Source: a virus
Direction: 5' to 3' (one strand)
DNA length: 64,000 nucleotides
Virus record (IMG/VR): IMGVR_UViG_3300035698_024280
Shown: positions 775 to 59,813 of the stretch, in pieces
How positions within the stretch are numbered: position 1 is the stretch's first letter
How the letters are laid out: each line of letters starts with the position of its first letter
Notes under the pieces: generated by a model
What the model was told of the DNA's origin: nothing
The model's input: only the letters and a program-made list of their open reading frames with translations
Databases searched by the model: none
Program-made: the position numbers and the translations under genes

Positions 775-1365
775 CTAATTACTTATAATTGTTGCATGAG
801 TTATAAAATCATCAACTGCAGTCTCCAAATATGAATATTTACTATCGGATAGACCCTCAATAGTTACTGTATCTTTATTCTCACTTAACGATATAATATT
901 AACAATATCAAATCCCTCAATAGAAATAACAACTCCGGATTTTGGTACAAATTGCCCAGCTTCGTTTTCATCGCAGTATTTATCGAAGAAATCTGTGAAG
1001 GCGCCTGTAGCTATTCCATCAGACTCTTCATTCTCATTGTTTACTTTATATATATCATCAAACACTTGCTCTAAGACACTACCTCGATCTATAGGAGAAC
1101 CAGGGAGACCAGATTGATTAAACCACTCAACTGCGATCTTTATATTTTCATTGTACATATCAATGACAGTCTGCGTATCAGAATATATCATCGCTTTTTT
1201 GAGCATCTGCTGAATATCATTACCAGCATCGATATATGCATCACCAGGGCTATCAGCATTGGTGACAAATATATCTTCTAATATACTATATATTTCATCA
1301 GCTAGTGAGACCTCATTTGATCTCCCATTAAATGCCTCCCAAATTAAATTAGTTTCGTTGTCCAT
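775..1365 (-). CDS. Acidic hypothetical protein, putative head internal protein (N-terminal MDNETNLIWE tag)
   Basis: 196 aa, very acidic; TAAATA late promoter 5 nt upstream; N-terminus shared with the neighbouring gene. Confidence 0.6.
   Translation of the reverse strand: MDNETNLIWEAFNGRSNEVSLADEIYSILEDIFVTNADSPGDAYIDAGNDIQQMLKKAMIYSDTQTVIDMYNENIKIAVEWFNQSGLPGSPIDRGSVLEQVFDDIYKVNNENEESDGIATGAFTDFFDKYCDENEAGQFVPKSGVVISIEGFDIVNIISLSENKDTVTIEGLSDSKYSYLETAVDDFITHATIISN
1336..1365 (-). repeat. 30-nt exact direct repeat, copy 1 (encodes MDNETNLIWE)
   Basis: ctcccaaattaaattagtttcgttgtccat, identical to 1841-1870. Confidence 0.95.
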
Positions 1366-3378: not shown

Positions 3379-4356
3379 TTAATTGTTATTAATATACCAA
3401 CTTACAGTATTTTCAATACTCTTATTAAATTTAGTGACTCTTTTCCATCCTAATTCACGAGAAATTTTATTTGCATTAATTGCATATCTTTTATCGTGAC
3501 CGGGCCTATCTGCAATATACTCAATAATACTCGTGCATGGTTTTGCGGTTTGTAAAGATACCTCAAACATAACTCTATTAGCTATCGATAGATTTGTACA
3601 TTCACATTTACCCCCTATATTATATGTTGACCCAGAAACACCTCCTTCAAGCACTCGGATTAAACCATCGCAGTGATCTGTAACATATAGCCAATCTCTT
3701 ATTTGGAGACCGTTTCCATATAAAGGTAAATTTTTACCAGCAATAGCATTTAATATTAACTTAGGTATTAACTTCTCTCTATGTTGACGGGGCCCGAAAT
3801 TATTTGAGCAATTGGTAACAATTGCATCTATGCCATAAGTTCTTGACCAAGATTTTACTAGATGATCCGCAGCCGCCTTAGTAGCAGCATATGGTGAGGA
3901 TGGTCTATACGGTGATAACTCTGTAAACGGGGATTTATTTAAATCTAAATCCCCATATACTTCATCAGTACTGACGTGAATAAGTCTAACACTCCTACCG
4001 GTAGTTTGCTTTAATTCTCTTATGGATTCTAGTATATTATATGTGCCTATAATATTTGAATCTACAAAAGGTTTAGGTGATGCAATTGAATTATCTACAT
4101 GTGACTCGGCTGCTAGGTGAATGATACTATCAATGCCCTTATCATGTAGCAATTCTCTTAATAGTGGCCTCTCAGATATATCACCGACAATGAGAGAGAC
4201 GTTTGATAGCCTACTACACATATTCTCAGCAAACTTAGAGTTGCTAGCATACCCCATCTTGTCTAAGATAATTATTTCGTAATTAGAGTCTGCTAATATT
4301 TGAACTAATGCAGATCCGATAAAACCGGCGCCGCCCGTTACTAATATTTTTTTCAT
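3379..4356 (-). CDS. rfbB: dTDP-glucose 4,6-dehydratase
   Basis: GGAGFIG, HLAAESHVDNSI, STDEVYGDL, PSSPYAATKAAAD, NCSNNFGPRQH.EKLIP, DRPGHD.RYAI. Confidence 0.95.
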   Translation of the reverse strand: MKKILVTGGAGFIGSALVQILADSNYEIIILDKMGYASNSKFAENMCSRLSNVSLIVGDISERPLLRELLHDKGIDSIIHLAAESHVDNSIASPKPFVDSNIIGTYNILESIRELKQTTGRSVRLIHVSTDEVYGDLDLNKSPFTELSPYRPSSPYAATKAAADHLVKSWSRTYGIDAIVTNCSNNFGPRQHREKLIPKLILNAIAGKNLPLYGNGLQIRDWLYVTDHCDGLIRVLEGGVSGSTYNIGGKCECTNLSIANRVMFEVSLQTAKPCTSIIEYIADRPGHDKRYAINANKISRELGWKRVTKFNKSIENTVSWYINNN

Positions 4357-4622
4357 AGACTATCTGACTCTATTGGTGTGTTTATAGCTATAAAATTTAG
4401 CAGTAGCTCCCTATCAGTTATTCTAATATCCTTATGAGGTACCCTCGCAACTTTATTAGATTTATGATCTTGATAACGCTGCCTATTGATACAGTTAGAT
4501 ACAGACATGGTGATGGCTGTATCGCCATAATTATCCTCACCATTTATATCTAATGTAGGCCACGGCTCGTAGAATTTTAAGAATTTAGAATCTCTTTGAT
4601 CTAATAATGCTTTTATATTCAT
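4353..4622 (-). CDS. Hypothetical protein
   Basis: 89 aa; overlaps both neighbours, suggesting coupled translation. Confidence 0.6.
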   Translation of the reverse strand: MNIKALLDQRDSKFLKFYEPWPTLDINGEDNYGDTAITMSVSNCINRQRYQDHKSNKVARVPHKDIRITDRELLLNFIAINTPIESDSL

Positions 4623-5206
4623 TAAAACTTATGAACTTTTTTATCAGTAGATGGCGAGATTGCCTTAGGTATTTCTATAAATAGTACTCCGTTATTAAGG
4701 GTCATACAAAGATCGTCAAGATTAAACTCGGGAGATACAAAGAAGCTTGAAGTTAATTTCTGTTGCGGTATCTTACTTTTTGCAGTGTGATGTTTTATAT
4801 TAAACGAAGAGCTGCAGTTTCGAGTAGCGGATATATCTAAAATACCTGTAGACTTTGTAGTATTTACATTAATCGATGAGCGGATAACCCCAGGTAGATC
4901 AACACTAATAATGAGGTCTTTACTGTCAGTGTAATATGACCTAGATCTAATAGTAAACGTTTCCTGGGACTTTGGTTTAGAGCCGTCGGTTAGGTCTCCA
5001 TTAAAGTGGTTGGGCTGGGCAGATTGACAATCTTCACCAGGGGGTGATTTACGCTCTCGACGATTCGGACCGGCTGTAGTGGTCACTACAGTCCATAAGC
5101 CGGTATTATGCAGTGATTGACAATCACCAGTGTTTCCTAAGTCGGGGTTAGTAGTGTTGAGCCGTTCAAATTCTTTTAGTATATTTTCGTAGTAATCCGT
5201 ATTCAT
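4622..5206 (-). CDS. hsp20: Small heat-shock protein (Hsp20/alpha-crystallin domain)
   Basis: C-terminal LIISVDLPGV..SSINV...GILDISA.R...SFFV...FNLDDL...LNNGVLFIEIPK. Confidence 0.8.
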   Translation of the reverse strand: MNTDYYENILKEFERLNTTNPDLGNTGDCQSLHNTGLWTVVTTTAGPNRRERKSPPGEDCQSAQPNHFNGDLTDGSKPKSQETFTIRSRSYYTDSKDLIISVDLPGVIRSSINVNTTKSTGILDISATRNCSSSFNIKHHTAKSKIPQQKLTSSFFVSPEFNLDDLCMTLNNGVLFIEIPKAISPSTDKKVHKF

Positions 5207-5512: not shown

Positions 5513-6034
5513 ATGCAAGACATAACTTCATTTTTCGAGCGGGCAGTTGCTAGAGAGTTCTCCCGTGACTTTCTATTTCGAGTGATCGGTATTAACATTC
5601 CTGGGTTTTCTCTTTCTGAAGATGATTTAGTTTATGCAAAATCTGGCTCCATCCCAAATAGGACGATTGAAAATGTTACTGCGCCTTATCAGGGGCTAGA
5701 TTTTAATGTTGCAGGTCGAGCAGTATATGAAAATTCTGCATCCTATCAAATTGACTTTTATTGTGATGCAAACTCAGATATTCATTCTAAGATGATAGCA
5801 GAAACAGAGAGAGTTTTTGGTAATGATGGTCGCGGCGATTATAATATTGGTGGGCCAGATTCTATTATATCATTAGCTCAAGTTGATAAGAACCTTGCCC
5901 CTGTAAAGACATATAAGCTAATAGGTGCAGCAATTAGAAGTACCGGAGCATTAGATTATACTATGGCGGCAGGTACTGGTCAAATTGTAAGCTTTAGTTC
6001 TACATTTGCATACCATTATTACACTAGTGAGTAG
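5513..6034 (+). CDS. gp19: Tail tube protein, gp19-like
   Basis: FSRDFLFRV, K..SIP.RTI..V..PY.G..FNVAGRAVY, YKLIGA.I...G.L.Y, F..TFAYHY; size matches gp19. Confidence 0.8.
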   Translation: MQDITSFFERAVAREFSRDFLFRVIGINIPGFSLSEDDLVYAKSGSIPNRTIENVTAPYQGLDFNVAGRAVYENSASYQIDFYCDANSDIHSKMIAETERVFGNDGRGDYNIGGPDSIISLAQVDKNLAPVKTYKLIGAAIRSTGALDYTMAAGTGQIVSFSSTFAYHYYTSE

Positions 6035-33654: not shown

Positions 33655-34134
33655 ATGTTCGCAATTTTCAACTCAACTAAGCAGTTTCTATACGTAGCTG
33701 ATGCACCTCCGGTAGATGATAAATATATATATAAGGAGCTAGACGATTTCATATTTGGTAGAGATAGGTGGGTCGGAGATTTCGATAATGGTTACATTAT
33801 CAGACTAAATGCACCAGTTCCAGAAAGTTTAGGAACGGTGAAAACCGTTACGAAGACGATGGTAGCAAATCATACATCTAAAAACATTTTGAAACATTAT
33901 GATATTCATGATCAATTAAATATTATATGTAATTGTATTGAAGGGGGAGGAACAACATTAACTCCAGAGTTTATTAAGATGAGGGAGTTTTTAACCGCTC
34001 AAATAGATCAATATAATAATACTATAAATATTTCAATGTCAGCTGATGATATACATTTTATTGATGACACAAATATGAGTAATGTAATTACAGGTGTATA
34101 TGAAGAATTTAGTGAGTTTAAAGAAAAGGTATAA
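33655..34134 (+). CDS. Putative tail fibre assembly chaperone
   Basis: I...Y.IHDQLNII...M.EF...I..YN pattern resembles fibre chaperones; adjacent to the fibre genes. Confidence 0.4.
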   Translation: MFAIFNSTKQFLYVADAPPVDDKYIYKELDDFIFGRDRWVGDFDNGYIIRLNAPVPESLGTVKTVTKTMVANHTSKNILKHYDIHDQLNIICNCIEGGGTTLTPEFIKMREFLTAQIDQYNNTINISMSADDIHFIDDTNMSNVITGVYEEFSEFKEKV

Positions 34135-35636
34135 TGTCTAATATAATAATAGCAAAAATTAAGGCTCGGAGAGGTTTAGATTCTGAGAGGGTGGGGACCG
34201 TCCTAGAGCAAGGCGAATTTGGATATACTATTGATACTAAGAGAGCCTTTATAGGGGATGGTATATTATCTGGAGGCGAGACTGTAGGTATACATGTCCA
34301 TAATATTCTTCCAGTATCAGGATCTCGTGTCGGGTTAGTAAATGCATATAAAAATGATATAGTTTATGAAAGTAACCTAATGTATCAGCTAACTGGAGAT
34401 AGCCCGGCTAATTTAGATAGTTGGGTATTTGTGGGGACGAGAGCCGATGATAGTACTTTAGAATATAATACTGCTGGGAAACTTATAATTAAACAGGCCG
34501 GAGTCACAAATTTACAAATTGCAATGCAAACTATAACTCCGAGCAATTTAAGTGCTGGTATAGTTTACAGTTCAGGTGGGTTATCTTTAAATCCAAATTT
34601 AGGTTTATCTGCTAATGTAGATAATAATACAATATATATAGACCCAGTAAGTAAATATTTAAGTATAAAGCCTGGCGGCGTCTCAAATTCAGAGCTATCG
34701 GCGGGGGCTGTAGATCAAGGCAATATTTCGATTAATGCAATTGGTGATGGTCTATCTGGCGCGGGGCCAGATAAAATATTTGTACATACAGATAACGAGA
34801 CTATTATAATCGAGGATGGTAAAGTCGCAGTTGGTACTATTTCTGCAGATAATATACAATTAGGTGTAGGTATGGAGAATAATCTAGGTAAACTGGAGCA
34901 TTTTGTACAGACAATAGATCCAGATGATTTAATTACTGCCGCAGGTAAATTAGAGCTAGCTCAGAAGTTTGATTTTAACTCACAGACATTTCATATGCCT
35001 AATGTTACTCTAAATAGTAAGGGCACTATAATAGGAGCTAATAATGGGACAATAATGCCACTCTCGTCGAATTACGCTGGATATGGCGGCTTTCCAACAC
35101 AAAGAGAGGGATCCGAAACTAATACTACAGTAGCAGTCGTTACTGGTGTGAGTGCCTCCAATGTACAAATATTATCTTCTGCCGGTTTTATGATTCTGAA
35201 TGTAGGTACACCTACTATTACTGATGGAGATGTTAGGAATTATGATAATGCTCAATATCTAGCTATACAAGCATTTACTATACCACAAACTCTAATAGAT
35301 ATTATAGATAATAAGTTTACCTTCGTAGAAACATACCCATATGAGTGGGTCGGTTATAGAGCGCACGACCCAACCCTTAATGATTACACTGCTAACGGTA
35401 ATACGCTAAGCTCTGCAGCATGCTCAGGGAGCGATGATTATACTGGATTTGCAGAGGCGGTTATTATATATAGCGACACACCTAGTTTAAGTGTAGGTAC
35501 TAATTTTGCTGCAACTCCTACTTCTTTAACATCATCTGAGTACAATTCTTTATCTGGTTGGATAAATATTGAAGGTGAGCGACTGTATCTAGTAGATGGA
35601 AGTAACATAGTACAATCAGTCAGCACATGCCCATAA
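34134..35636 (+). CDS. Tail fibre protein with Mtd N-terminal-like domain and shaft repeats
   Basis: KIKARRG...LEQGEFGYTIDTKRAFIGDG; repeated (V/T)DN.TI.I shaft motifs. Confidence 0.7.
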   Translation: MSNIIIAKIKARRGLDSERVGTVLEQGEFGYTIDTKRAFIGDGILSGGETVGIHVHNILPVSGSRVGLVNAYKNDIVYESNLMYQLTGDSPANLDSWVFVGTRADDSTLEYNTAGKLIIKQAGVTNLQIAMQTITPSNLSAGIVYSSGGLSLNPNLGLSANVDNNTIYIDPVSKYLSIKPGGVSNSELSAGAVDQGNISINAIGDGLSGAGPDKIFVHTDNETIIIEDGKVAVGTISADNIQLGVGMENNLGKLEHFVQTIDPDDLITAAGKLELAQKFDFNSQTFHMPNVTLNSKGTIIGANNGTIMPLSSNYAGYGGFPTQREGSETNTTVAVVTGVSASNVQILSSAGFMILNVGTPTITDGDVRNYDNAQYLAIQAFTIPQTLIDIIDNKFTFVETYPYEWVGYRAHDPTLNDYTANGNTLSSAACSGSDDYTGFAEAVIIYSDTPSLSVGTNFAATPTSLTSSEYNSLSGWINIEGERLYLVDGSNIVQSVSTCP

Positions 35637-35639
35637 TAT

Positions 35640-37544
35640 ATGTCAGTAGAAATAACTAATAATACAATTATAAAGCTGCTCACGAGGAGAGGCAGCAATG
35701 CGGAGAGAGTTGGCGTTTTACTTGCAGAAGGTGAGGTCGGGTTTACTGTAGATACAAAAAGATTATATGTAGGAGATGGGGTCACGAAGGGTGGAGTACC
35801 TACCAGTAATATATTTCTAGGGTCTACTGCAACAATAACCGATTTTGGGGGTCGATCGCATATAGGTGATATCGTCTTTAAATCTGATACAAATGAGCTA
35901 TTTAGACTTAAGAGTAATGACGGTAGTACTATAACAGATTGGGAGATGGTTGCTTCTCATAAGTTTGCAGTTACAGATAATGCTACTTTAAGTGCAGATG
36001 TTGATGGGGTACTACATGTAAACATAATTGAAGGTAGCAATATATCGAATGACTCATTCGGTAGTGGTATAGTATTAGCTAGTGGAATAATTTCATTATC
36101 TGCCGCCATTCCGATAGATATAATTAAGTTAAAAGATAATTCTAGCTTAGAGATACCTAATGCTATAGTCTTTAATGATGGTACATCTACAGAGAGCTAT
36201 AAGTTTCCAGTAGGTCAACCAAAATATAACGGTTATAATTTAATAACAGACCTGTTAGGGAACTTAACCTGGCAAAAGCCTATTTCCGCTCAGGCAGGTA
36301 CAGTATATATTAATAGTGTTTCTGTACCAGTAGGCACAGTTACGCCTTATGTATCACAAGCTCTGGTCGAGCCGGATGGTTGGCTGTTTTGTGATGGTAG
36401 ATCCGTAGTCGGTGCAACATACCCTGCTTTATCAGCCGCTATTGGTAGTATGTTCGGTGGGGATGATATAAATTTTAATTTACCGAATATTATGCCAGGT
36501 AAGGTTCCTTTTGGCGCATATACAACGGAAAATTTAGGGACGGAATACCCAATACTGACTGGTGTTGATGCTAGTACTGAATTAACAGGTACTTCAGCCA
36601 CATCTTTATCCGCACTATCCGCGAATACTACAGAGACCTATACAAATTCCCTATCCGGATTCAGTACATACTACTTAATTAAGCATCAAGCTGAAATATT
36701 ATTTGAGGATATATTTTTAGAAACTACTAATCAGGTACTTACTGCAGAGGGGCTGTCTGCATACGATATTAATGCAAGCTCATCAACAGACACGACCGGC
36801 CCATCTGGTCAGTTTGCATTGGGTATACCTGCTGGGGATATAGGTACTGGTAATTCCAGGGTAGTTGAGGCTATACAGAGAGCAAGAGTACCTACAATGT
36901 CTGAGTATAAGGTACCAGGTATATATGAATATATAATACCTAATCACACATACAAACTCAAGGTTACAGCGACCGGTGGGGGTGGTCATGGGTATGTTAG
37001 ATACGCGGCTGATTTTTATAGAGCAGATGGTACTCAGGGCGGAGCAGGTAGCACTGTTATAGCTTATATTGATGTAATACCTGGAGAGTCGTACAGATTA
37101 AGTATTGGTGAGGGTGGTGTTGCAAATAGAACATCTAAGCTGCAAAATACTTTAAGTGGTGTAGGTTTAGGTACAACTTCTGTTTTCGGTCTTAGTACAA
37201 ATGCTGCTACAATATATAACGATATTTCTGCTAATGGTGCGCGAGAGACTAATACATCGAGGATGGTTGATCATGCAGGTGGAGGCTATGCATATGAGGG
37301 ATTCGGTGGTGGTGTAGGGTCAGTGCCTAATCAATCAGGTCGTATTGAGTCATCTATTATAATTAATGGTGGTAATGGTGGAAACTTTACAGATGGTCGG
37401 ACTCCGGAGGGTGTTGGTGGATCTGGATTTTGGGGTACAGGGCCTGCACCTGGCGGTGGGGGTGCTGGTTGGTCTACAAAGAGCAGATCCGGAGAGACTA
37501 TAGCTGAAGCAGGAAATGGTATTATTATAGTTGAAACATTATAA
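35640..37544 (+). CDS. Tail fibre with Mtd N-like domain, phage tail collar domain and Gly-rich C-terminus (gp12-like)
   Basis: LLAEGEVGFTVDTKRLYVGDG; PVGTV.PY...PDGWLFCDG...YPAL..AIG...FNLP; Gly-rich GGGG...GGAG...GNGIIIVE. Confidence 0.8.
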   Translation: MSVEITNNTIIKLLTRRGSNAERVGVLLAEGEVGFTVDTKRLYVGDGVTKGGVPTSNIFLGSTATITDFGGRSHIGDIVFKSDTNELFRLKSNDGSTITDWEMVASHKFAVTDNATLSADVDGVLHVNIIEGSNISNDSFGSGIVLASGIISLSAAIPIDIIKLKDNSSLEIPNAIVFNDGTSTESYKFPVGQPKYNGYNLITDLLGNLTWQKPISAQAGTVYINSVSVPVGTVTPYVSQALVEPDGWLFCDGRSVVGATYPALSAAIGSMFGGDDINFNLPNIMPGKVPFGAYTTENLGTEYPILTGVDASTELTGTSATSLSALSANTTETYTNSLSGFSTYYLIKHQAEILFEDIFLETTNQVLTAEGLSAYDINASSSTDTTGPSGQFALGIPAGDIGTGNSRVVEAIQRARVPTMSEYKVPGIYEYIIPNHTYKLKVTATGGGGHGYVRYAADFYRADGTQGGAGSTVIAYIDVIPGESYRLSIGEGGVANRTSKLQNTLSGVGLGTTSVFGLSTNAATIYNDISANGARETNTSRMVDHAGGGYAYEGFGGGVGSVPNQSGRIESSIIINGGNGGNFTDGRTPEGVGGSGFWGTGPAPGGGGAGWSTKSRSGETIAEAGNGIIIVETL

Positions 37545-37816: not shown

Positions 37817-37842
37817 GACTAGATGTTTGAGTAAATATACTC

Positions 37843-38922
37843 ATGGCGACGTATTTTATCCCTAATAATAGCATTGTAAATAATATATCCCATAATAAGG
37901 GGTATAATGCTAATTTTGATATAGTGTGGTCGTTTGACTATGCATTAAGTGGTATTCCTGATAAATCGCAGGGGTCCTTTACAACCTTCTTATATGATGC
38001 TGACGTAGAGAGCTTAGTTGGAGGGGGCCCTGGTAAAGCAGGTGGGTATCTCCCGTTAGAATCTCATTCAATTGGGGCAGATATACCCGGAGTTTCAGGA
38101 GCTAAATTAGGAATTAATTTTGATACTGCGGGTATGTTTGCCATAAGCGGTAATGGTGTAGATGGTAATTTTAATGCAAAAAATAAATCTTTAACTATAC
38201 GAGGCGGCGCTACCGGGTTTCAATTATTAACGAGTATTGAATTGTCAGCGATTGATAGTTCATTTATATTTGAAGAGGCAGAAATTAATTATAATCGGTT
38301 AAGATTCAGATTAACTGATGTTGGTAATACCTTAAAAATACATTATAAGACCGAAGGTGGGCGATATGTAGAACTACTAACATATCAGGTCTCATTATCT
38401 GTTAATGATACTACAGCATTTAAAGTGGGTGTAGGTTATTCTGCTCCTGTTAGTGGAGCTGCTACACCTTATAAATTTTCCATTAGAAATTATCATGTCG
38501 AGGGCGTACATAACAACCCCGTAGCAGCAGAAAGAAGTCTAATACCAATAGCTTTTCCAGCTTATCAATATCAACAATCTACAAATGTCGTTGCCCCATC
38601 AGCGGTTCCGATTGTCCGATTAGAAAAAATAACGCTGTATGATTGTCCCGATGATCCGGAGATATTACTTAGTGATCCTGATAAATGCTCAGTTACATTT
38701 ATAACATTATCAGCCGGCAATGAAATACCGATAGCTGTAAGACCTCCGATCATTACTGGGGTGTATGTAAACTTACTACCGTCAACTCCTGACCCAACTA
38801 CTACGACTACTACGACTACGACGACTACGACGACAACTACAGAGACGCCGTATCCGTATTATAGTGCCCCTGGTGCCTTTGCACAGGCACCGACAGACTA
38901 TCATACTGAAATATTTCCATAA
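37843..38922 (+). CDS. Legume-lectin-like protein with C-terminal Pro/Thr-rich (Thr15) tail
   Basis: FDIVWSFDY...GSFTTFLYD...GGGPG..GGY...LGINFDT.G resembles the L-type lectin fold; PSTPDP-T15-ETP tail. Confidence 0.6.
   Translation: MATYFIPNNSIVNNISHNKGYNANFDIVWSFDYALSGIPDKSQGSFTTFLYDADVESLVGGGPGKAGGYLPLESHSIGADIPGVSGAKLGINFDTAGMFAISGNGVDGNFNAKNKSLTIRGGATGFQLLTSIELSAIDSSFIFEEAEINYNRLRFRLTDVGNTLKIHYKTEGGRYVELLTYQVSLSVNDTTAFKVGVGYSAPVSGAATPYKFSIRNYHVEGVHNNPVAAERSLIPIAFPAYQYQQSTNVVAPSAVPIVRLEKITLYDCPDDPEILLSDPDKCSVTFITLSAGNEIPIAVRPPIITGVYVNLLPSTPDPTTTTTTTTTTTTTTTETPYPYYSAPGAFAQAPTDYHTEIFP
38797..38841 (+). repeat. (ACT/ACG/ACA)15 tract encoding Thr15
   Basis: actactacgactactacgactacgacgactacgacgacaactaca. 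Confidence 0.95.
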
Positions 38923-40406
38923 TGTTCAACTATACCTTTTTAATTCCCGTATTTAATTTAAAGGGATTTCGATATGATAATTTTTTATTTACTACAAATA
39001 AAATAAGAGGAGCGACAGATAATATATTAATTATAGAGCAGGTATCCGATATAAAGGCTGCAAGCAAAATTAAAGATTATGCGGAAAAATATAATATTAA
39101 ATATCACTCAGTTCATGATGCTGGTAATAGAATAAATAAATCCAAATTAATAAACATAGGCACTAAGTTAATAGATACTGAGTATATATGGGTAAATGAT
39201 GCTGATTGTCTATTGAAGTTCAATAAATTAATAAAGGATTTAGAGAGTAGTCGGGTAAATCATGATTTTATTCAGCCTTATGAAAATGTAGAGTTTATAG
39301 ATAGTGTAAAATCAAAACAACTACGTAAAGATAACCCCGTAGAGTGCTCTTATAAAAATCAACCATATGCTCATATGGGGTGTATGTACGGAGCTCTTTC
39401 CTTTATATTTAAAAAGTCAGCTTTTATTGATCTGGGTATGTTCAATGAGAATTTTTTAGGGTGGGGGCATGAGGATACTGAGTTCTGCTATAGATTAATT
39501 ACTAATAATAAAGATATCCACATATTATTTGAAAGTTATGGTGTACATCTATACCACCCTATATACTCCAATAAAAATCGAGGTGACCTAGTATTAAACT
39601 CCAATATATTTCTGGCGCTATATAGCGCCAGTTCAATTGAAAAAATTACAGCGGTTATATCTAATTATTACATCGAGATGTTTAAATGTAAGCCCTTAGG
39701 TATAGGTATTATAACATTATTTAGAGGTAATATTCAACTGCTGAGAAACATATTTAAATTTTATAATACTAATTTAAATACTATACATAATATAAATCTA
39801 ACATGGATCGTTAACAGTAGTAATATATTATTTAGAGGTCTTACGCGATTGGCTAAGTATAAATTGCAAAAAAAATATAACATCGATATTCTTATTATAT
39901 ATAATAAGGCAATAAGTAAGCGCTCTAAGGATAATTATTTTACTGACGTTCATTCTGATATCGGTAAAATATATACAGAGGTTCTTGCAGATCAAAATAG
40001 TAGATCTGTTATAATATTAGAAGACGATGTAACACCCCCTGATGATGGTATAAACCTATTAATTAATTCATTTTTTGATAATACTGACGCCAGTGCAATT
40101 GCAGCAGTTTATATAGACCGTAATGCGCTACAATATGCTAATGAAGGGGAAAAAGTATGCGGTAAGTTTGAAGATGATGTACATAACAATTTAGCATATA
40201 ATTTAATATCTAATAGTGGAATATATAGAGCAGATAGAATACCAGGAGGCTTTACTATATACAATACGTCTCATGTAAAGGCTAACCTTCCAGTATATTA
40301 TGATGCGGAAACGAGAGTTGGGTGGGATTGGCTACTCAGCTCTAGGTTATTAAAATCTGGTAACCTATATTTAGATACAGATATATCATGCATTCACCAT
40401 ATATAG
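38922..40406 (+). CDS. Two-domain GT-A glycosyltransferase (GT2/GT7C-like)
   Basis: FLIPV, KSKLIN.G, WVNDADC (DxD), GMFNENFLGWGHEDTEF..RL, VHLYH; second domain IILEDDV...GGFT...D.W...CIHH. Confidence 0.85.
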   Translation: MFNYTFLIPVFNLKGFRYDNFLFTTNKIRGATDNILIIEQVSDIKAASKIKDYAEKYNIKYHSVHDAGNRINKSKLINIGTKLIDTEYIWVNDADCLLKFNKLIKDLESSRVNHDFIQPYENVEFIDSVKSKQLRKDNPVECSYKNQPYAHMGCMYGALSFIFKKSAFIDLGMFNENFLGWGHEDTEFCYRLITNNKDIHILFESYGVHLYHPIYSNKNRGDLVLNSNIFLALYSASSIEKITAVISNYYIEMFKCKPLGIGIITLFRGNIQLLRNIFKFYNTNLNTIHNINLTWIVNSSNILFRGLTRLAKYKLQKKYNIDILIIYNKAISKRSKDNYFTDVHSDIGKIYTEVLADQNSRSVIILEDDVTPPDDGINLLINSFFDNTDASAIAAVYIDRNALQYANEGEKVCGKFEDDVHNNLAYNLISNSGIYRADRIPGGFTIYNTSHVKANLPVYYDAETRVGWDWLLSSRLLKSGNLYLDTDISCIHHI

Positions 40407-40407
40407 T

Positions 40408-41253
40408 ATGTTAACAATAGGGATGCCAGTTTATGACGATTTTGATGGGGTGTTTTTTACGATTCAATCCATTAGATTAAATTGCCCTGATATGAATATA
40501 CAATTTGTGGTAATTGATAATAACCCAACTAGTGCAGATGGTAAGGCTACTAAGAAGTTTATAGAAACAGAGGTAATGGGCAAATATGTTGAATATACAG
40601 AGCGTATAGGCACCAGTATAAAGAATGAAATATTTAAACACTCTGAAACTAAATTTACATTATGTATAGATTGTCATATTCTATTACCACAAGAGAGCAT
40701 TGAAGCTCTCATCGAGTTTTATATGGAGAATCCTCTAACTGAGGATTTAATTCAAGGGCCGTTAGTATCAAATAGTCTCACTCATAGATATACACACTTT
40801 AATGAAAATTGGGGAAGCTTAATGCACGGCCAGTGGGATTTTGATGAAGTACAATATAAAAGGGGTAAGCCGTTTGAAATTAAATCGATGGGGATGGGGT
40901 TATTTTCATGCAGAACAGAGGTATGGCCTGAGTTTCATTCTCTAATGAAAGGCTTCGGGGGGGAGGAGGGCTATATTCATAAAAAATTTATGAAAAGAGG
41001 TAGTAAGTGTTTATGTATACCGCAGCTACAATGGGTACATCGTTTCGACAGACCTAGAGGTATACCATACCCAAATATTGCTGAAGATCGATTGTGGAAC
41101 TACTTTATTGGTGCATTTGATATATATGGAAATTTTACTCATTCGTATATTAGCGAAATAAAGATGAACTTCGCTAATATATTACCAGAGCTGACTATAA
41201 ATCATATTTATAACACTGCCGTCAATGAATATATTACATTTAGTAATAAATAA
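40408..41253 (+). CDS. GT2-family glycosyltransferase
   Basis: LTIGMPVYDD, FVVIDNNP, LCIDCHIL, GMGLFSCR, GFGGEEGYI, WVHRF.RP. Confidence 0.85.
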   Translation: MLTIGMPVYDDFDGVFFTIQSIRLNCPDMNIQFVVIDNNPTSADGKATKKFIETEVMGKYVEYTERIGTSIKNEIFKHSETKFTLCIDCHILLPQESIEALIEFYMENPLTEDLIQGPLVSNSLTHRYTHFNENWGSLMHGQWDFDEVQYKRGKPFEIKSMGMGLFSCRTEVWPEFHSLMKGFGGEEGYIHKKFMKRGSKCLCIPQLQWVHRFDRPRGIPYPNIAEDRLWNYFIGAFDIYGNFTHSYISEIKMNFANILPELTINHIYNTAVNEYITFSNK

Positions 41254-55172: not shown

Positions 55173-55862
55173 TTAACCCCACTTAGTCAAAAACCATTTT
55201 TTACCGTTTTCAAACTCAGTAGTAATTTTAGATAAGCCTGCAGATTTATGTATTATTGGTATATCACATACCCCTATCTTTAAACCTGCTTTATTGCAAT
55301 CCAAACAAAATGCTAAATCGTAAAAATGAAATTTAGCTGGATTGGATTCATCAAATCTAACTCGTTTTAATGATGATTTAGTAGCAGCAATAAATACACC
55401 ATCTATTAGTGTTGCTCTTTGGTTTAAATTTCCGAAAGTAGTCATATTATAAGGCTCATGTTCATAAGGGTTGGGGTTTGAACTATGAGCAACACACCCT
55501 AACAAGCTTTCTCTCGGAGCCATTAAATGCCATAGTCCAGGCTCTTTAATCTCTGCAGTAGCTGATCCAGCAACACCTACTATATCAAATTTAGCAAAAT
55601 AAAGGCCTAACTTATAGTGTATATCCTTACAGTTAAGATAAACATCATCATGTACAAATATAAATGCAGTATCATCTTCATATTTATCTAGAGATGTATC
55701 AATAAATTTATTATACTGAGTTGATAAACCTGATGTATTATGTGGTATTTTATAAATTTCATAATTTTCTATATTCAGGTCTTCAATACTCCTTTCAATT
55801 AATGTCGGGTTACTCTTATTATTTTTGGTACAGATAATAAACACTACTTTTGGTATCTTCAT
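55173..55862 (-). CDS. GT-A glycosyltransferase (GT2-like)
   Basis: FIICT, GLSTQYN, FIFVHDDV, DIVGVAG, LIDGVFIA, FDE...FHFYDL.FCL, IIHKS.G. Confidence 0.85.
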   Translation of the reverse strand: MKIPKVVFIICTKNNKSNPTLIERSIEDLNIENYEIYKIPHNTSGLSTQYNKFIDTSLDKYEDDTAFIFVHDDVYLNCKDIHYKLGLYFAKFDIVGVAGSATAEIKEPGLWHLMAPRESLLGCVAHSSNPNPYEHEPYNMTTFGNLNQRATLIDGVFIAATKSSLKRVRFDESNPAKFHFYDLAFCLDCNKAGLKIGVCDIPIIHKSAGLSKITTEFENGKKWFLTKWG

Positions 55863-55866
55863 AAAT

Positions 55867-56535
55867 TTATATTAATAGGTAGGGGCTATTTTGCTTAAAC
55901 TGCCCCACTAATATTGGTCCCTTGTTACTTAATTTAAATATCTTGCCTTCTGGGAGTTCATCCCAGCTGCCTCTACTGTCTGTTGAAGAAAAATTCCCAG
56001 ATTTATCAGTATATAATGTTGACCCTTGTCGACTAATATAAATTACACCTGATTTTTTATTAAATGCCCAGATTGCAAATGTACCTTCTAACTTAGATAG
56101 AGCAAGTTCTAACGATTTAACTTCAGTTATGCTATGGTCTCTTGCAGCTATCTTCTGAGCCATTAATGGTATTAATTTAGAATCAACTGTTACAGTATTA
56201 CTGCTATTATATTCCTCTATTATACTTTTATGGTTAGTTATTACTCCGTTATGAGCCACTACCCAATCTCCAACAGTAAAGGGGTGAGTGGATTGCTCAT
56301 CCCATGTCCTATTAATTCCGGTAGGTGCTTGCAGGTGACCTAAATATACTCCATAATCTACGTTCGTGAGGATTTTATCAATCTTACCAACGCCCTGCCA
56401 TTTTTCAATATTATAAATATGCTTATTGTTTAATATTGCGCCTAGATAGCTACCCGCCCAGGGCCCTCTAGAGTAATTGCATTCGTGCAATATTTCAAAC
56501 ATTGATTTATTAAAAGAGCCGTATATTGCGCACAT
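55867..56535 (-). CDS. Class II (Ntn) glutamine amidotransferase, stand-alone
   Basis: True start MCAIYG (N-terminal Cys) lies 5 nt after TATAAATA; RG, HLQAPT, HPF, AHNGVITN, VDS, LEGTFAIW. Confidence 0.85.
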   Translation of the reverse strand: MCAIYGSFNKSMFEILHECNYSRGPWAGSYLGAILNNKHIYNIEKWQGVGKIDKILTNVDYGVYLGHLQAPTGINRTWDEQSTHPFTVGDWVVAHNGVITNHKSIIEEYNSSNTVTVDSKLIPLMAQKIAARDHSITEVKSLELALSKLEGTFAIWAFNKKSGVIYISRQGSTLYTDKSGNFSSTDSRGSWDELPEGKIFKLSNKGPILVGQFKQNSPYLLI

Positions 56536-56612
56536 ATCTTTATTTATAACTATTATTAACATAATTATATACAATAGTATTAAAAAATCCACTCAGAGTA
56601 ATAAATATCTAT

Positions 56613-58399: not shown

Positions 58400-59059
58400 A
58401 TGAATGATAAAGAATTAATATACGAAAGCTATAAGTCTCTCAATCTAAAGCAGGTGATGCTGGAATCTGCTGCTGATACGTTTATAAGGAACTCTCAAAA
58501 TATTAATACAATTGAAGAGGCAAATGCAATATTAGAAATTCATAGAGAGTTAGTTTCAGAGGGGATACTAGGTGGCTTGAAGTCTATGGGGCAGCGGGCA
58601 GTAGCTGGCGCTTCAAAGGCTGGTGCAAACATTGCTGGTGCTGCAGGTCAAGCTGCTAGGACTGCAGGCGCAGTTGGTAGTGCAGTAGCTGGTCAGATCG
58701 GAGATAATGCAAAAAATATATACCAGTCTGGATCTGATGATCAGAGTGCTCAACAGGTAATTATAAAAGCAAATGCTGCTGCGCAAGAGCTTGCTAATTT
58801 AATAAATTCCGCGATTGAGAAATACCCCGATGTTTTTAGTGGTGGCTCTTTAGGCAGCGGCGGTGATGTTATGAGTCAACGCTTAGGTGATATTATTAAT
58901 CGCTTAGTAGATGTACAAAGTCAAACAAAAGCTAATATGGAAACATCCCAAAATAAAGGATATTTCGGTGGTGTAGGCGATGCTGCTAAAGCAGCTTATA
59001 ATGCACCTCCAGCGTCAGGTGGGATGCCTACATCAGGTAGACAGCCAACTACAACTTAA
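58400..59059 (+). CDS. Ala/Gly-rich late protein with N-terminal MNDKELIYESY tag (putative head/ejection protein)
   Basis: Start corrected to the ATG at 58400, 5 nt after TAAATA. Confidence 0.6.
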   Translation: MNDKELIYESYKSLNLKQVMLESAADTFIRNSQNINTIEEANAILEIHRELVSEGILGGLKSMGQRAVAGASKAGANIAGAAGQAARTAGAVGSAVAGQIGDNAKNIYQSGSDDQSAQQVIIKANAAAQELANLINSAIEKYPDVFSGGSLGSGGDVMSQRLGDIINRLVDVQSQTKANMETSQNKGYFGGVGDAAKAAYNAPPASGGMPTSGRQPTTT

Positions 59060-59813
59060 AAATATATGTCTCGTAGTCTATTAAGCCTACACCTAATTCG
59101 TTATATTTGTCTGTTAACTTTCGCTGATCCTTATATATTAAAGGGTCAGCGAATCCAGCATCTATAAACCCTTGCAATCTTAAAGAGCTGCTAGCGGTAG
59201 TATAATCAGGTAAATTTGACCCATCATAGCAGGTCCATGTCTCGCTGAATTTGACTTTATGATTTATACCTTCTCTTACAATATCTGCCTTAGACATCTC
59301 AATTAATGGGGCTTCTACAACGACTGGCGAAGCTCTGTTTAGATTTAATATATTATTTATACTATCTAAGAACTCAACAGACCCGTCCCAGTAGCCAGCT
59401 AACGAATCAGCCTGAGCTGCGCCATGCCATATTGTGGTAGCTCCTACAGCTTCAGCCCTAGCGGCAGCTATACTAAGAAATAACATATTTCTATTTGGTA
59501 CATACGTTTTAGGCTGCGCTTCGCCTTGAATATCTCTTATATTAGGAGTATCTATACTATCATTTGTAAGCGAACTAGTAGGCGCAAGCTCTTTAAGGAA
59601 CCTTATATCTAAAACCTGGTGATATACCCTCTTATGTTTCTTTCTAGCATACCCTATTTGCGTTTCGGCGCAGGTAATTTCTTTACTATGTCGCTGCCCG
59701 TAATCAAAAGTAATACAATATATTTCATCGAACTCTAATAAGGCCTTGTGTAACAATACTGTACTATCCATCCCTCCAGACATAGGTAGTACTAATTTTT
59801 TTATTTTACTCAT
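59049..59813 (-). CDS. queC: 7-cyano-7-deazaguanine synthase QueC-like (Zn-ligand Cys mostly lost)
   Basis: SGGMDST, FDYGQRH, TYVPNRNMLFLS, APLI..SK..IV, TWTCY. Confidence 0.9.
   Translation of the reverse strand: MSKIKKLVLPMSGGMDSTVLLHKALLEFDEIYCITFDYGQRHSKEITCAETQIGYARKKHKRVYHQVLDIRFLKELAPTSSLTNDSIDTPNIRDIQGEAQPKTYVPNRNMLFLSIAAARAEAVGATTIWHGAAQADSLAGYWDGSVEFLDSINNILNLNRASPVVVEAPLIEMSKADIVREGINHKVKFSETWTCYDGSNLPDYTTASSSLRLQGFIDAGFADPLIYKDQRKLTDKYNELGVGLIDYETYIFKL

Follow-up and report, generated by a model that had tools for sequence, protein, structure and literature searches.

Within IMGVR_UViG_3300035698_024280, an uncultured virus record in IMG/VR of which we analysed a stretch of 64,000 nucleotides (the window), three adjacent genes encode a lectin-fold protein that carries 15 consecutive threonines towards its C-terminus (P1), a tandem glycosyltransferase (GT1) and a single-domain glycosyltransferase (GT2). 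Based on our comparative data, the two enzymes probably O-glycosylate P1 in the cytoplasm, with GT2 modifying the threonine tract and GT1 the tail behind it or an extension of the glycan. According to this model, a single leaderless-type transcript would jointly yield P1, GT1 and GT2 by coupled translation late in infection. P1 would belong to the tail-fibre module and combine its lectin-fold N-domain with an exposed, disordered C-terminal stalk consisting of the Thr15 tract and the tail. GT2 would transfer a sugar to the hydroxyl groups of the tract before assembly, resulting in a mucin-like stalk, and GT1 would also act on P1, either by glycosylating the conserved tail or by extending the glycan, in the manner of two-site enzymes of such architecture. 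The data show the gene structure, the folds, the late signal and the co-occurrence of the genes, whereas we infer P1 to be the acceptor and a part of the virion, and the same holds for the identity of the sugar and for an effect on the particle. The locus has the following features:

34134..37544, plus strand: two tail-fibre genes with Mtd_N N-termini, the second also with a Collar domain; 5' of P1 in all relatives
37832..37837, plus strand: TAAATA late-promoter-like element, starting 11 nucleotides before the P1 ATG; leaderless-type arrangement
37843-38922, plus strand: P1 open reading frame (ORF), 359 amino acids
37843..38517, plus strand: P1 residues 1-225, predicted L-type (legume) lectin-fold beta-sandwich; conserved core of the family
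38518..38796, plus strand: P1 residues 226-318, middle region with a predicted local distance difference test (pLDDT) score of 38-56; contains a CP.DP...DP..C segment
38797..38841, plus strand: Thr15 tract (P1 residues 319-333), linker and candidate acceptor of O-glycans
38842..38922, plus strand: P1 C-terminal tail and stop, 25-26 residues, end EIFP, motif Y.P..IP...DH.E.FP
38922-40406, plus strand: GT1 ORF, 494 amino acids; N-domain 1-215 (DxD at D93/D95, WGHED), helical linker, C-domain 261-494 (EDD at 366-368)
40408-41253, plus strand: GT2 ORF, 281 amino acids
41259..43340, plus strand: downstream 693-residue protein with its own TAAATA at 41247-41252; closes the variable slot in relatives

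One line of evidence comes from the neighbours of GT2 relatives. We sorted a GT2-anchored set into 60 clusters at 90% identity and defined a tract as a poly-Ser/Thr run of at least 8 residues. For 12 of these clusters, a tract-bearing ORF lies directly upstream of the GT2 relative, on the same strand and with a gap of -10 to +43 nucleotides, compared with a background of 18 tract-bearing ORFs among the 1967 other ORFs of those loci (odds ratio 27, Fisher 8e-12, uncorrected for ancestry). The upstream tract proteins are mutually non-homologous and comprise P1 fusions (including a P1 with T36 in L002), Cys-motif ORFs of 93-250 residues and giants of 1490-2426 residues; further domains found in them are InlB-type repeats, an FGE-sulfatase domain together with a Gly-rich part, Calx-like domains and BNR repeats. 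On the GT2 tree, the poly-Ser/Thr state changes 10 times and is present inside every major clade.

The small tract proteins deserve a separate description. In several loci (L027:1325-2392, L028:8851-9207, L038:10714-11504, L024:10742-11140) mucin-like ORFs of 93-250 residues are found behind a short P1 and ahead of GT2. Besides poly-Thr/Ser runs, these ORFs have a C.PC(L/M)P motif and end in a conserved C..C(N).L.(F/Y) pattern, and from their sequences they look like free-standing glycan-carrier peptides.

A second set was anchored on P1, and thus blind to both tract and GT2, and was restricted to 45 loci with a demonstrably complete slot behind P1. Tract and GT2 occurred together in 11 of these loci, GT2 without a tract in 6 and neither in 28, and there was not a single tract without GT2 (Fisher 1.2e-6). 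Co-occurrence of tract and enzymes in related genomes had been suggested as a check by the first-pass annotation of this region, and for GT2 it was observed in all 11 tract-bearing complete loci. Independent pairs on supported branches of the P1 set were concordant in 4 of 4 cases. Besides, a scan of IMG/VR for 15 Thr codons in a row yielded 120 stretches, and in five of them the stored sequence also contains a GT2 relative; wherever the tract ORF could be called, the GT2 relative was located downstream on the same strand. Two complete or near-complete relatives without GT2 (G016, G017) contained no T10 tract in a search that was run with a positive control. A full-text search of the literature retrieved no paper in which phage glycosyltransferases are connected with T4-like phages or with poly-Thr tracts.

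These patterns also bear on the possibility that there is no functional link at all, and that Thr runs and glycosyltransferases are passengers of a fibre hot-spot which share ancestry or were joined by recombination. The few independent contrasts of the P1 set and the many GT2-family members without a nearby tract would fit such a scenario. It leaves unaccounted for the 27-fold enrichment relative to all remaining ORFs in those loci, the constant gene order with its tight spacing, and the concordant gains and losses of tract and GT2 in unrelated phage backbones, and we regard it as quite unlikely.

For GT1 the association is a different one. A GT1 homologue overlaps or abuts all four tail-bearing P1 genes (those of the window, L001, L005 and L261) and is found downstream of none of the six long P1 genes without a tail; GT1 does not track Thr tracts. 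GT1 is therefore linked to the C-terminal tail of P1, the motif of which also ends most close P1 relatives, and the tandem enzyme may dock on this tail or use it as an acceptor. The window P1 possesses both tract and tail and is accompanied by both enzymes. Distant relatives of the GT1 N-domain (30-33% identity) in other phages follow a protein of 714-723 residues and not P1.

The enzymes might instead glycosylate other proteins of the virion, such as the fibres, the 693-residue protein, the capsid or the tail, with Thr15 serving as a flexible linker only. Six P1 clusters with GT2 and no tract in the slot can be cited in favour of this option, as can T10 tracts that lie about 50 kilobases (kb) from GT2 in some phages with the enzyme in their replication module, and the precedent of mycobacteriophages, for which PMC12619734 cites the C-termini of capsid and tail-tube proteins as glycan acceptors. 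Nevertheless, P1 is the sole bearer of a long Ser/Thr tract in the window, in all 12 adjacent cases the tract gene stands directly before GT2, and GT1 tracks the P1 tail, which makes another acceptor improbable.

Several observations weigh against P1 as the substrate. Thr tracts can be plain linkers. The P1 set provides only four independent contrasts, so that the sign test cannot go below p = 0.125 and significance is unreachable. An initial, looser co-occurrence and pairs test (p 0.03) was dropped, since contigs cut inside giant open-ended ORFs had been scored as trait-less, and the strict P1-anchored version has less power than the looser one. The link between GT1 and the tail is based on 10 loci, and the window GT2 itself sits on a long branch of the GT2 tree. 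The first-pass annotation would have abandoned the idea if relatives kept the enzymes without any Thr-rich protein, and such cases do in part exist: apart from the six P1 clusters mentioned above, GT2 is kept in the complete genome G031, where a T10 tract is absent, and approximately half of the sampled GT2 family forms a replication-module clade of another phage lineage, with no adjacent tract. In this clade the genes are arranged in the order DnaB, primase, deoxynucleoside monophosphate (dNMP) kinase, PD-(D/E)XK nuclease, GT2, a 283-residue protein, PAP2, a GNT-I-like enzyme and Pol III alpha, a fixed module that is seen in L085:5395-15968 and about 30 similar loci (L068-L140). Whereas some of these records contain T10 tracts at the distance given above, others have none in the fragment examined. 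Since two members of the clade that are sited elsewhere (L090, L109) have poly-Thr neighbours, the GT2 family may act on tracts anywhere in a genome, or the acceptors may differ between lineages.

Turning to the enzymes themselves, GT2 is a soluble single-domain protein without any hydrophobic segment in its sequence. It matches PF00535 alone, even at permissive thresholds, with 26.4 bits against a cut-off of 23.3, and its relatives reach 35-46 bits. The Atlas model (predicted template modelling score, pTM, 0.91) has TM scores of 0.83-0.92 to GT2-type clusters and thus predicts a GT-A fold; structural neighbours are GT2/Glyco_transf_7C enzymes, GT2-LanC fusions and a cluster resembling polypeptide GalNAc-transferases (ppGalNAc-T; TM 0.79). 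The sequence contains the invariant motifs D88-x-H90, GGEEGY and W..HRF and also DD near the N-terminus. Across 37 sequences of the family, D88 and H90 of the D-x-H motif, H211 and G184/E186/E187 are invariant, and by analogy D88-x-H90 would be the metal-site motif of GT2. Relatives are abundant in uncultured material, metagenomes providing over 1000 and IMG/VR over 513, and the look-alike clusters are 90-97% viral. No sequence-level match was found to the solved GalNAc-transferases, and profile comparison placed TarP first among solved relatives, with a match to the N-terminal 120 residues only.

TarP is a phage-encoded wall-teichoic-acid GlcNAc transferase and thereby brings up the possibility that the enzymes remodel glycans of the host envelope (lipopolysaccharide, capsule or teichoic-acid-like polymers), for instance to mask a receptor, so that their position in the fibre slot is incidental. 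This would also agree with source records that label some GT2 homologues as capsule or cell-wall biosynthesis glycosyltransferases, with the PAP2 phosphatase and the GNT-I-like enzyme adjoining GT2 in the replication-module lineage, and with the polysaccharide polymerases among the fold neighbours of GT1. On the other hand, neither enzyme has membrane segments, both sit, coupled to a gene of the fibre module, behind a late promoter that would act when the cell is near lysis, and the repeated order of a poly-Ser/Thr ORF followed by GT2 beside unrelated tract proteins would go unexplained. Envelope remodelling is in our opinion unlikely.

Phage DNA is another conceivable substrate. The first-pass annotation had set the window enzymes apart from T4-type DNA glucosyltransferases on the grounds that the latter are GT-B enzymes. 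This argument is weak, as GT-A DNA glycosyltransferases, again with TarP as the best solved structural relative, have been described in phages (Pyle et al., bioRxiv 10.1101/2023.12.21.572611), and a GT-A fold alone therefore excludes nothing. Glycosylation of modified bases by GT2, perhaps also by GT1, would further fit the many GT2 relatives located between the genes for dNMP kinase and nuclease and those for the polymerase, and the presence of QueC and other base-modification candidates in the window. In contrast to the systems of Pyle et al., the scanned window genes include neither a cytosine methyltransferase plus dioxygenase nor a thymidylate-synthase-like hydroxymethylase, and the locus itself lacks a hydroxymethylase, a dioxygenase and a methyltransferase. 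The motifs reported for those enzymes, R...DDD...EDY/F, can be set against DD, D-x-H and EEGY of GT2 by description only. Moreover, the window GT2 is late and coupled to a gene of the structural module, the replication region has a different glycosyltransferase of its own (Glyco_tranf_2_5, 55173-55862), and a tblastn search with GT2 against 50,697 phage records gave no match in cultured phages. As a role on DNA would likewise leave the link to poly-Ser/Thr ORFs unexplained, we consider it very unlikely.

GT1 matches Glyco_tranf_2_2, Glyco_transf_7C and PF00535 over residues 1-215, and its C-domain scores in Pfam only in an orthologue (PF00535 in that of L005). The structure model (pLDDT 87) consists of two alpha/beta domains linked by helices. 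Top Foldseek matches are two-domain enzymes and cover both domains: K4CP (E 4e-19), LARGE1, PmHS2, LH3, mimivirus R699 and ColGalT1; the N-domain also matches GalNAc-T1, T2 and T3 (E ~1e-8). Among 19 GT1 sequences D93 and D95 are invariant, and D368 of the EDD motif is at least 90% conserved. Full-length orthologues are rare, and cultured phages contributed only weak matches, from cyanophages and a Tunturiibacter phage. Pfam and the structure models thus agree with the first-pass annotation, which had called the first enzyme a two-domain GT-A enzyme and the second a GT2 enzyme.

The model of P1, built with a 47-sequence alignment, has a pLDDT above 90 over residues 1-225, where it forms a beta-sandwich, and is disordered over residues 230-359. 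Foldseek retrieved peanut lectin, a lectin domain of M. jannaschii, YwfG and the L-lectin module of SraP (E ~3e-6), as well as Emp46p and ERGIC-53. With a VIA Z of 15.5 and a root-mean-square deviation of 2.8-3.3 A over 171-184 residues, the comparison of models confirmed a predicted legume-lectin fold for residues 1-225, in agreement with the earlier description of the first protein as lectin-like. P1 has no Pfam, PHROG or NCBIfam match and so does not qualify for a lectin family at sequence level. F93-D94-T95 is invariant in the P1 family, and we take it, judged by eye, to resemble the E-F-D-T strand of lectins with Asn in place of Glu.

While the N-domain is universal in the P1 family, the C-terminal part varies from none to 550 added residues. 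The Cys-containing segment of the middle region is kept in the closest homologues. The Thr15 tract is encoded by a mixture of ACT, ACG and ACA codons and flanked by PSTPDP before and ETP after; in our alignment A1 it is placed opposite the T10 of P0001 and opposite Pro- or PT-rich linkers elsewhere. Other homologues have a Pro- or PT-rich linker plus one or two extra domains. All P1 homologues derive from metagenomes, and no relative was present in 185,579 prokaryote genomes, which therefore offered no host or prophage clue. Scans of IMG/VR with single P1 or GT1 sequences returned nothing, so that searches based on alignments were needed. With these, 60 IMG/VR and 80 metagenome loci were obtained in which the P1 gene directly follows two Mtd_N-type fibre genes in conserved order; after P1 comes a variable slot and then usually a relative of the 693-residue protein. 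The block had been placed between the tail fibres and another structural gene. This holds on the fibre side, where the genes are of the Mtd_N type, and on the other side the 693-residue protein, which had no family match in library scans, would have a structural role only by inference. The slot behind P1 can also be occupied by a GT2-FkbM methyltransferase fusion (L064:9992-11497), a weak sulfotransferase-like ORF (L005:13725-14339) or a weak ORF resembling capsule-synthesis proteins and polysialyltransferases (L002:13216-14139).

Re-reading of the ORFs found the three genes, the Thr15 tract, both junctions and the TAAATA element exactly where the first-pass annotation had put them. P1 and GT1 are joined by TAATG, in which the P1 stop TAA occupies 38920-38922 and the GT1 ATG begins at 38922 (1-nucleotide overlap), and the GT1 stop TAG, ending at 40406, is separated by one nucleotide from the GT2 ATG at 40408. 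TAAATA starts 11-12 nucleotides before the ATG of 20 of the 68 window ORFs, with about 0.2 expected from the density of the hexamer, and its occurrence before P1 is not chance. Other ORFs with the element at -11/-12 are, for example, 775-1365(-) and those at 5513, 6063, 11370, 23679, 33655, 37565, 41259 and 56613. Because TAAATA precedes P1 and, at 41247, the gene that follows the block, but neither GT1 nor GT2, P1-GT1-GT2 is by these signals one late unit of leaderless type, in agreement with the single late promoter proposed before. An element at -11/-12 allows no Shine-Dalgarno site, and its frequency implies leaderless or near-leaderless mRNAs for many of the late genes here.

By analogy, the P1 locus would work like the glycosylation systems of mycobacteriophages, mucins and serine-rich adhesins, yet it is a member of none of them. 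To our knowledge, self-glycosylation of phage particles has been demonstrated experimentally only for a few mycobacteriophages; Freeman and colleagues are said to have described it in 2023, in Cell Host Microbe, for the virions of Che8, Corndog and Myrna. The window resembles these phages in that glycosyltransferases are encoded beside structural genes. As proposed here from genes alone, it would also share acceptors that are terminal extensions of particle proteins and a cytoplasmic modification before assembly. In contrast to the mycobacteriophages, the window stems from an uncultured aquatic T4-like myovirus with a different host group, the candidate acceptor is a lectin-fold protein of the fibre module with a homopolymeric Thr tract, and the enzymes show no homology to those of Che8, Corndog and Myrna (the phage records searched gave no match for GT2 and weak, non-mycobacteriophage matches for GT1).

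With the polypeptide GalNAc-transferases of family GT27, GT2 would have in common dense Thr/Pro acceptor tracts, putative in our case, and it shares a GT-A domain, the D-x-H plus distal His pattern, a GGE-type motif and the structural similarity to the ppGalNAc-T-like cluster. Unlike GT27 enzymes, it has no ricin-type lectin domain, no type II membrane anchor and no secretory pathway. P1 is reminiscent of SraP-type serine-rich repeat glycoproteins, which likewise join an L-type lectin module to a tract of hydroxy amino acids, a long one in their case, with the enzymes encoded alongside. These proteins are glycosylated in the cytoplasm by the co-encoded enzymes, as we propose for P1. Here, however, the GT-B pair GtfA/GtfB, which is the primary enzyme of those systems, and SecA2/Y2 export are not present, and the tract consists of Thr, is short (15 residues) and is C-terminal. 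GT1, finally, has two GT-A domains per chain with an acidic DxD-type motif in each, as do the chondroitin polymerase K4CP of E. coli K4, the heparosan synthase PmHS2 of P. multocida and LARGE1. LARGE1 assembles its polymer on the O-glycans that a mucin-like domain carries. The identity of GT1 to such enzymes is only 9-15%, and a polymerase activity of GT1 with two alternating sugars is hypothetical.

A wider reading is that the large and almost exclusively viral GT2 family represents dedicated O-glycosyltransferases of poly-Thr/Ser, that many uncultured aquatic phages carry mucin-like glycan stalks on their fibres and on further surface proteins, and that P1 offers two acceptors, tract and tail, each with an enzyme of its own, on which the tandem enzyme builds a repeating polymer; we hold this tentatively, as a serious possibility rather than the expected outcome. 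If it were true, the particles of T4-like and other aquatic phages would be glycosylated by a second family of enzymes, not related to that of the mycobacteriophages and much more widespread, with simple Thr/Ser runs as acceptors. Models of the fibre and adhesin proteins of uncultured phages would then change, and there would be a bearing on how stable and sticky particles are in water and how they recognize their hosts there. Besides, a compact soluble enzyme together with a minimal peptide tag could be tested in E. coli and possibly be used for protein glycosylation.

Apart from the P1 locus, the window contains further sugar-related genes, among them the following:

3379-4356, minus strand: RfbB (dTDP-glucose 4,6-dehydratase), TIGR01181, 407 bits

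The first-pass annotation had proposed that the glycosyltransferases modify the Thr tract or other virion proteins, possibly using deoxy-sugar precursors from RfbB. While the former part gained comparative support from the links of GT2 to tracts and of GT1 to the tail, RfbB as sugar supplier was rejected: the gene lies 34 kb from the P1 locus on the opposite strand and without the TAAATA late element, and close homologues also occur in complete relatives with neither GT2 nor poly-Thr. RfbB is preceded on its strand by an ORF of 89 amino acids (4353-4622) and, upstream of this, by a gene for a small heat-shock protein of the Hsp20/alpha-crystallin-like kind (4622-5206(-), E 4e-5). The third glycosyltransferase, Glyco_tranf_2_5 on the minus strand (E 3e-14), adjoins a glutamine amidotransferase and the gp41 helicase in the replication region, with QueC 3 kb away (55867-56562(-), 59049-59813(-)), and this cluster is a separate candidate for sugar or base modification.

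The source of the window is a deeply divergent uncultured T4-like myovirus with genes for a clamp loader, a gp6-like wedge protein, gp32, gp41, UvsX and gp43. Its clamp loader has at most 38% identity to that of any cultured phage, and a protein database record places the GT2 gene on a contig of 195.5 kb. Nucleotide and protein searches against cultured phages returned nothing for the region, P1, GT2 or fibre B, and only the weak matches for GT1, so that no annotated relative could be used. The 693-residue protein downstream of GT2 shows Asp-box-like S.D.G.TW repeats when read by eye, which suggests a beta-propeller. Clear repeats of this S.D.G.TW type are also found in a poly-Thr protein that adjoins a GT2 relative in another locus (L182:3053-4108(-)).

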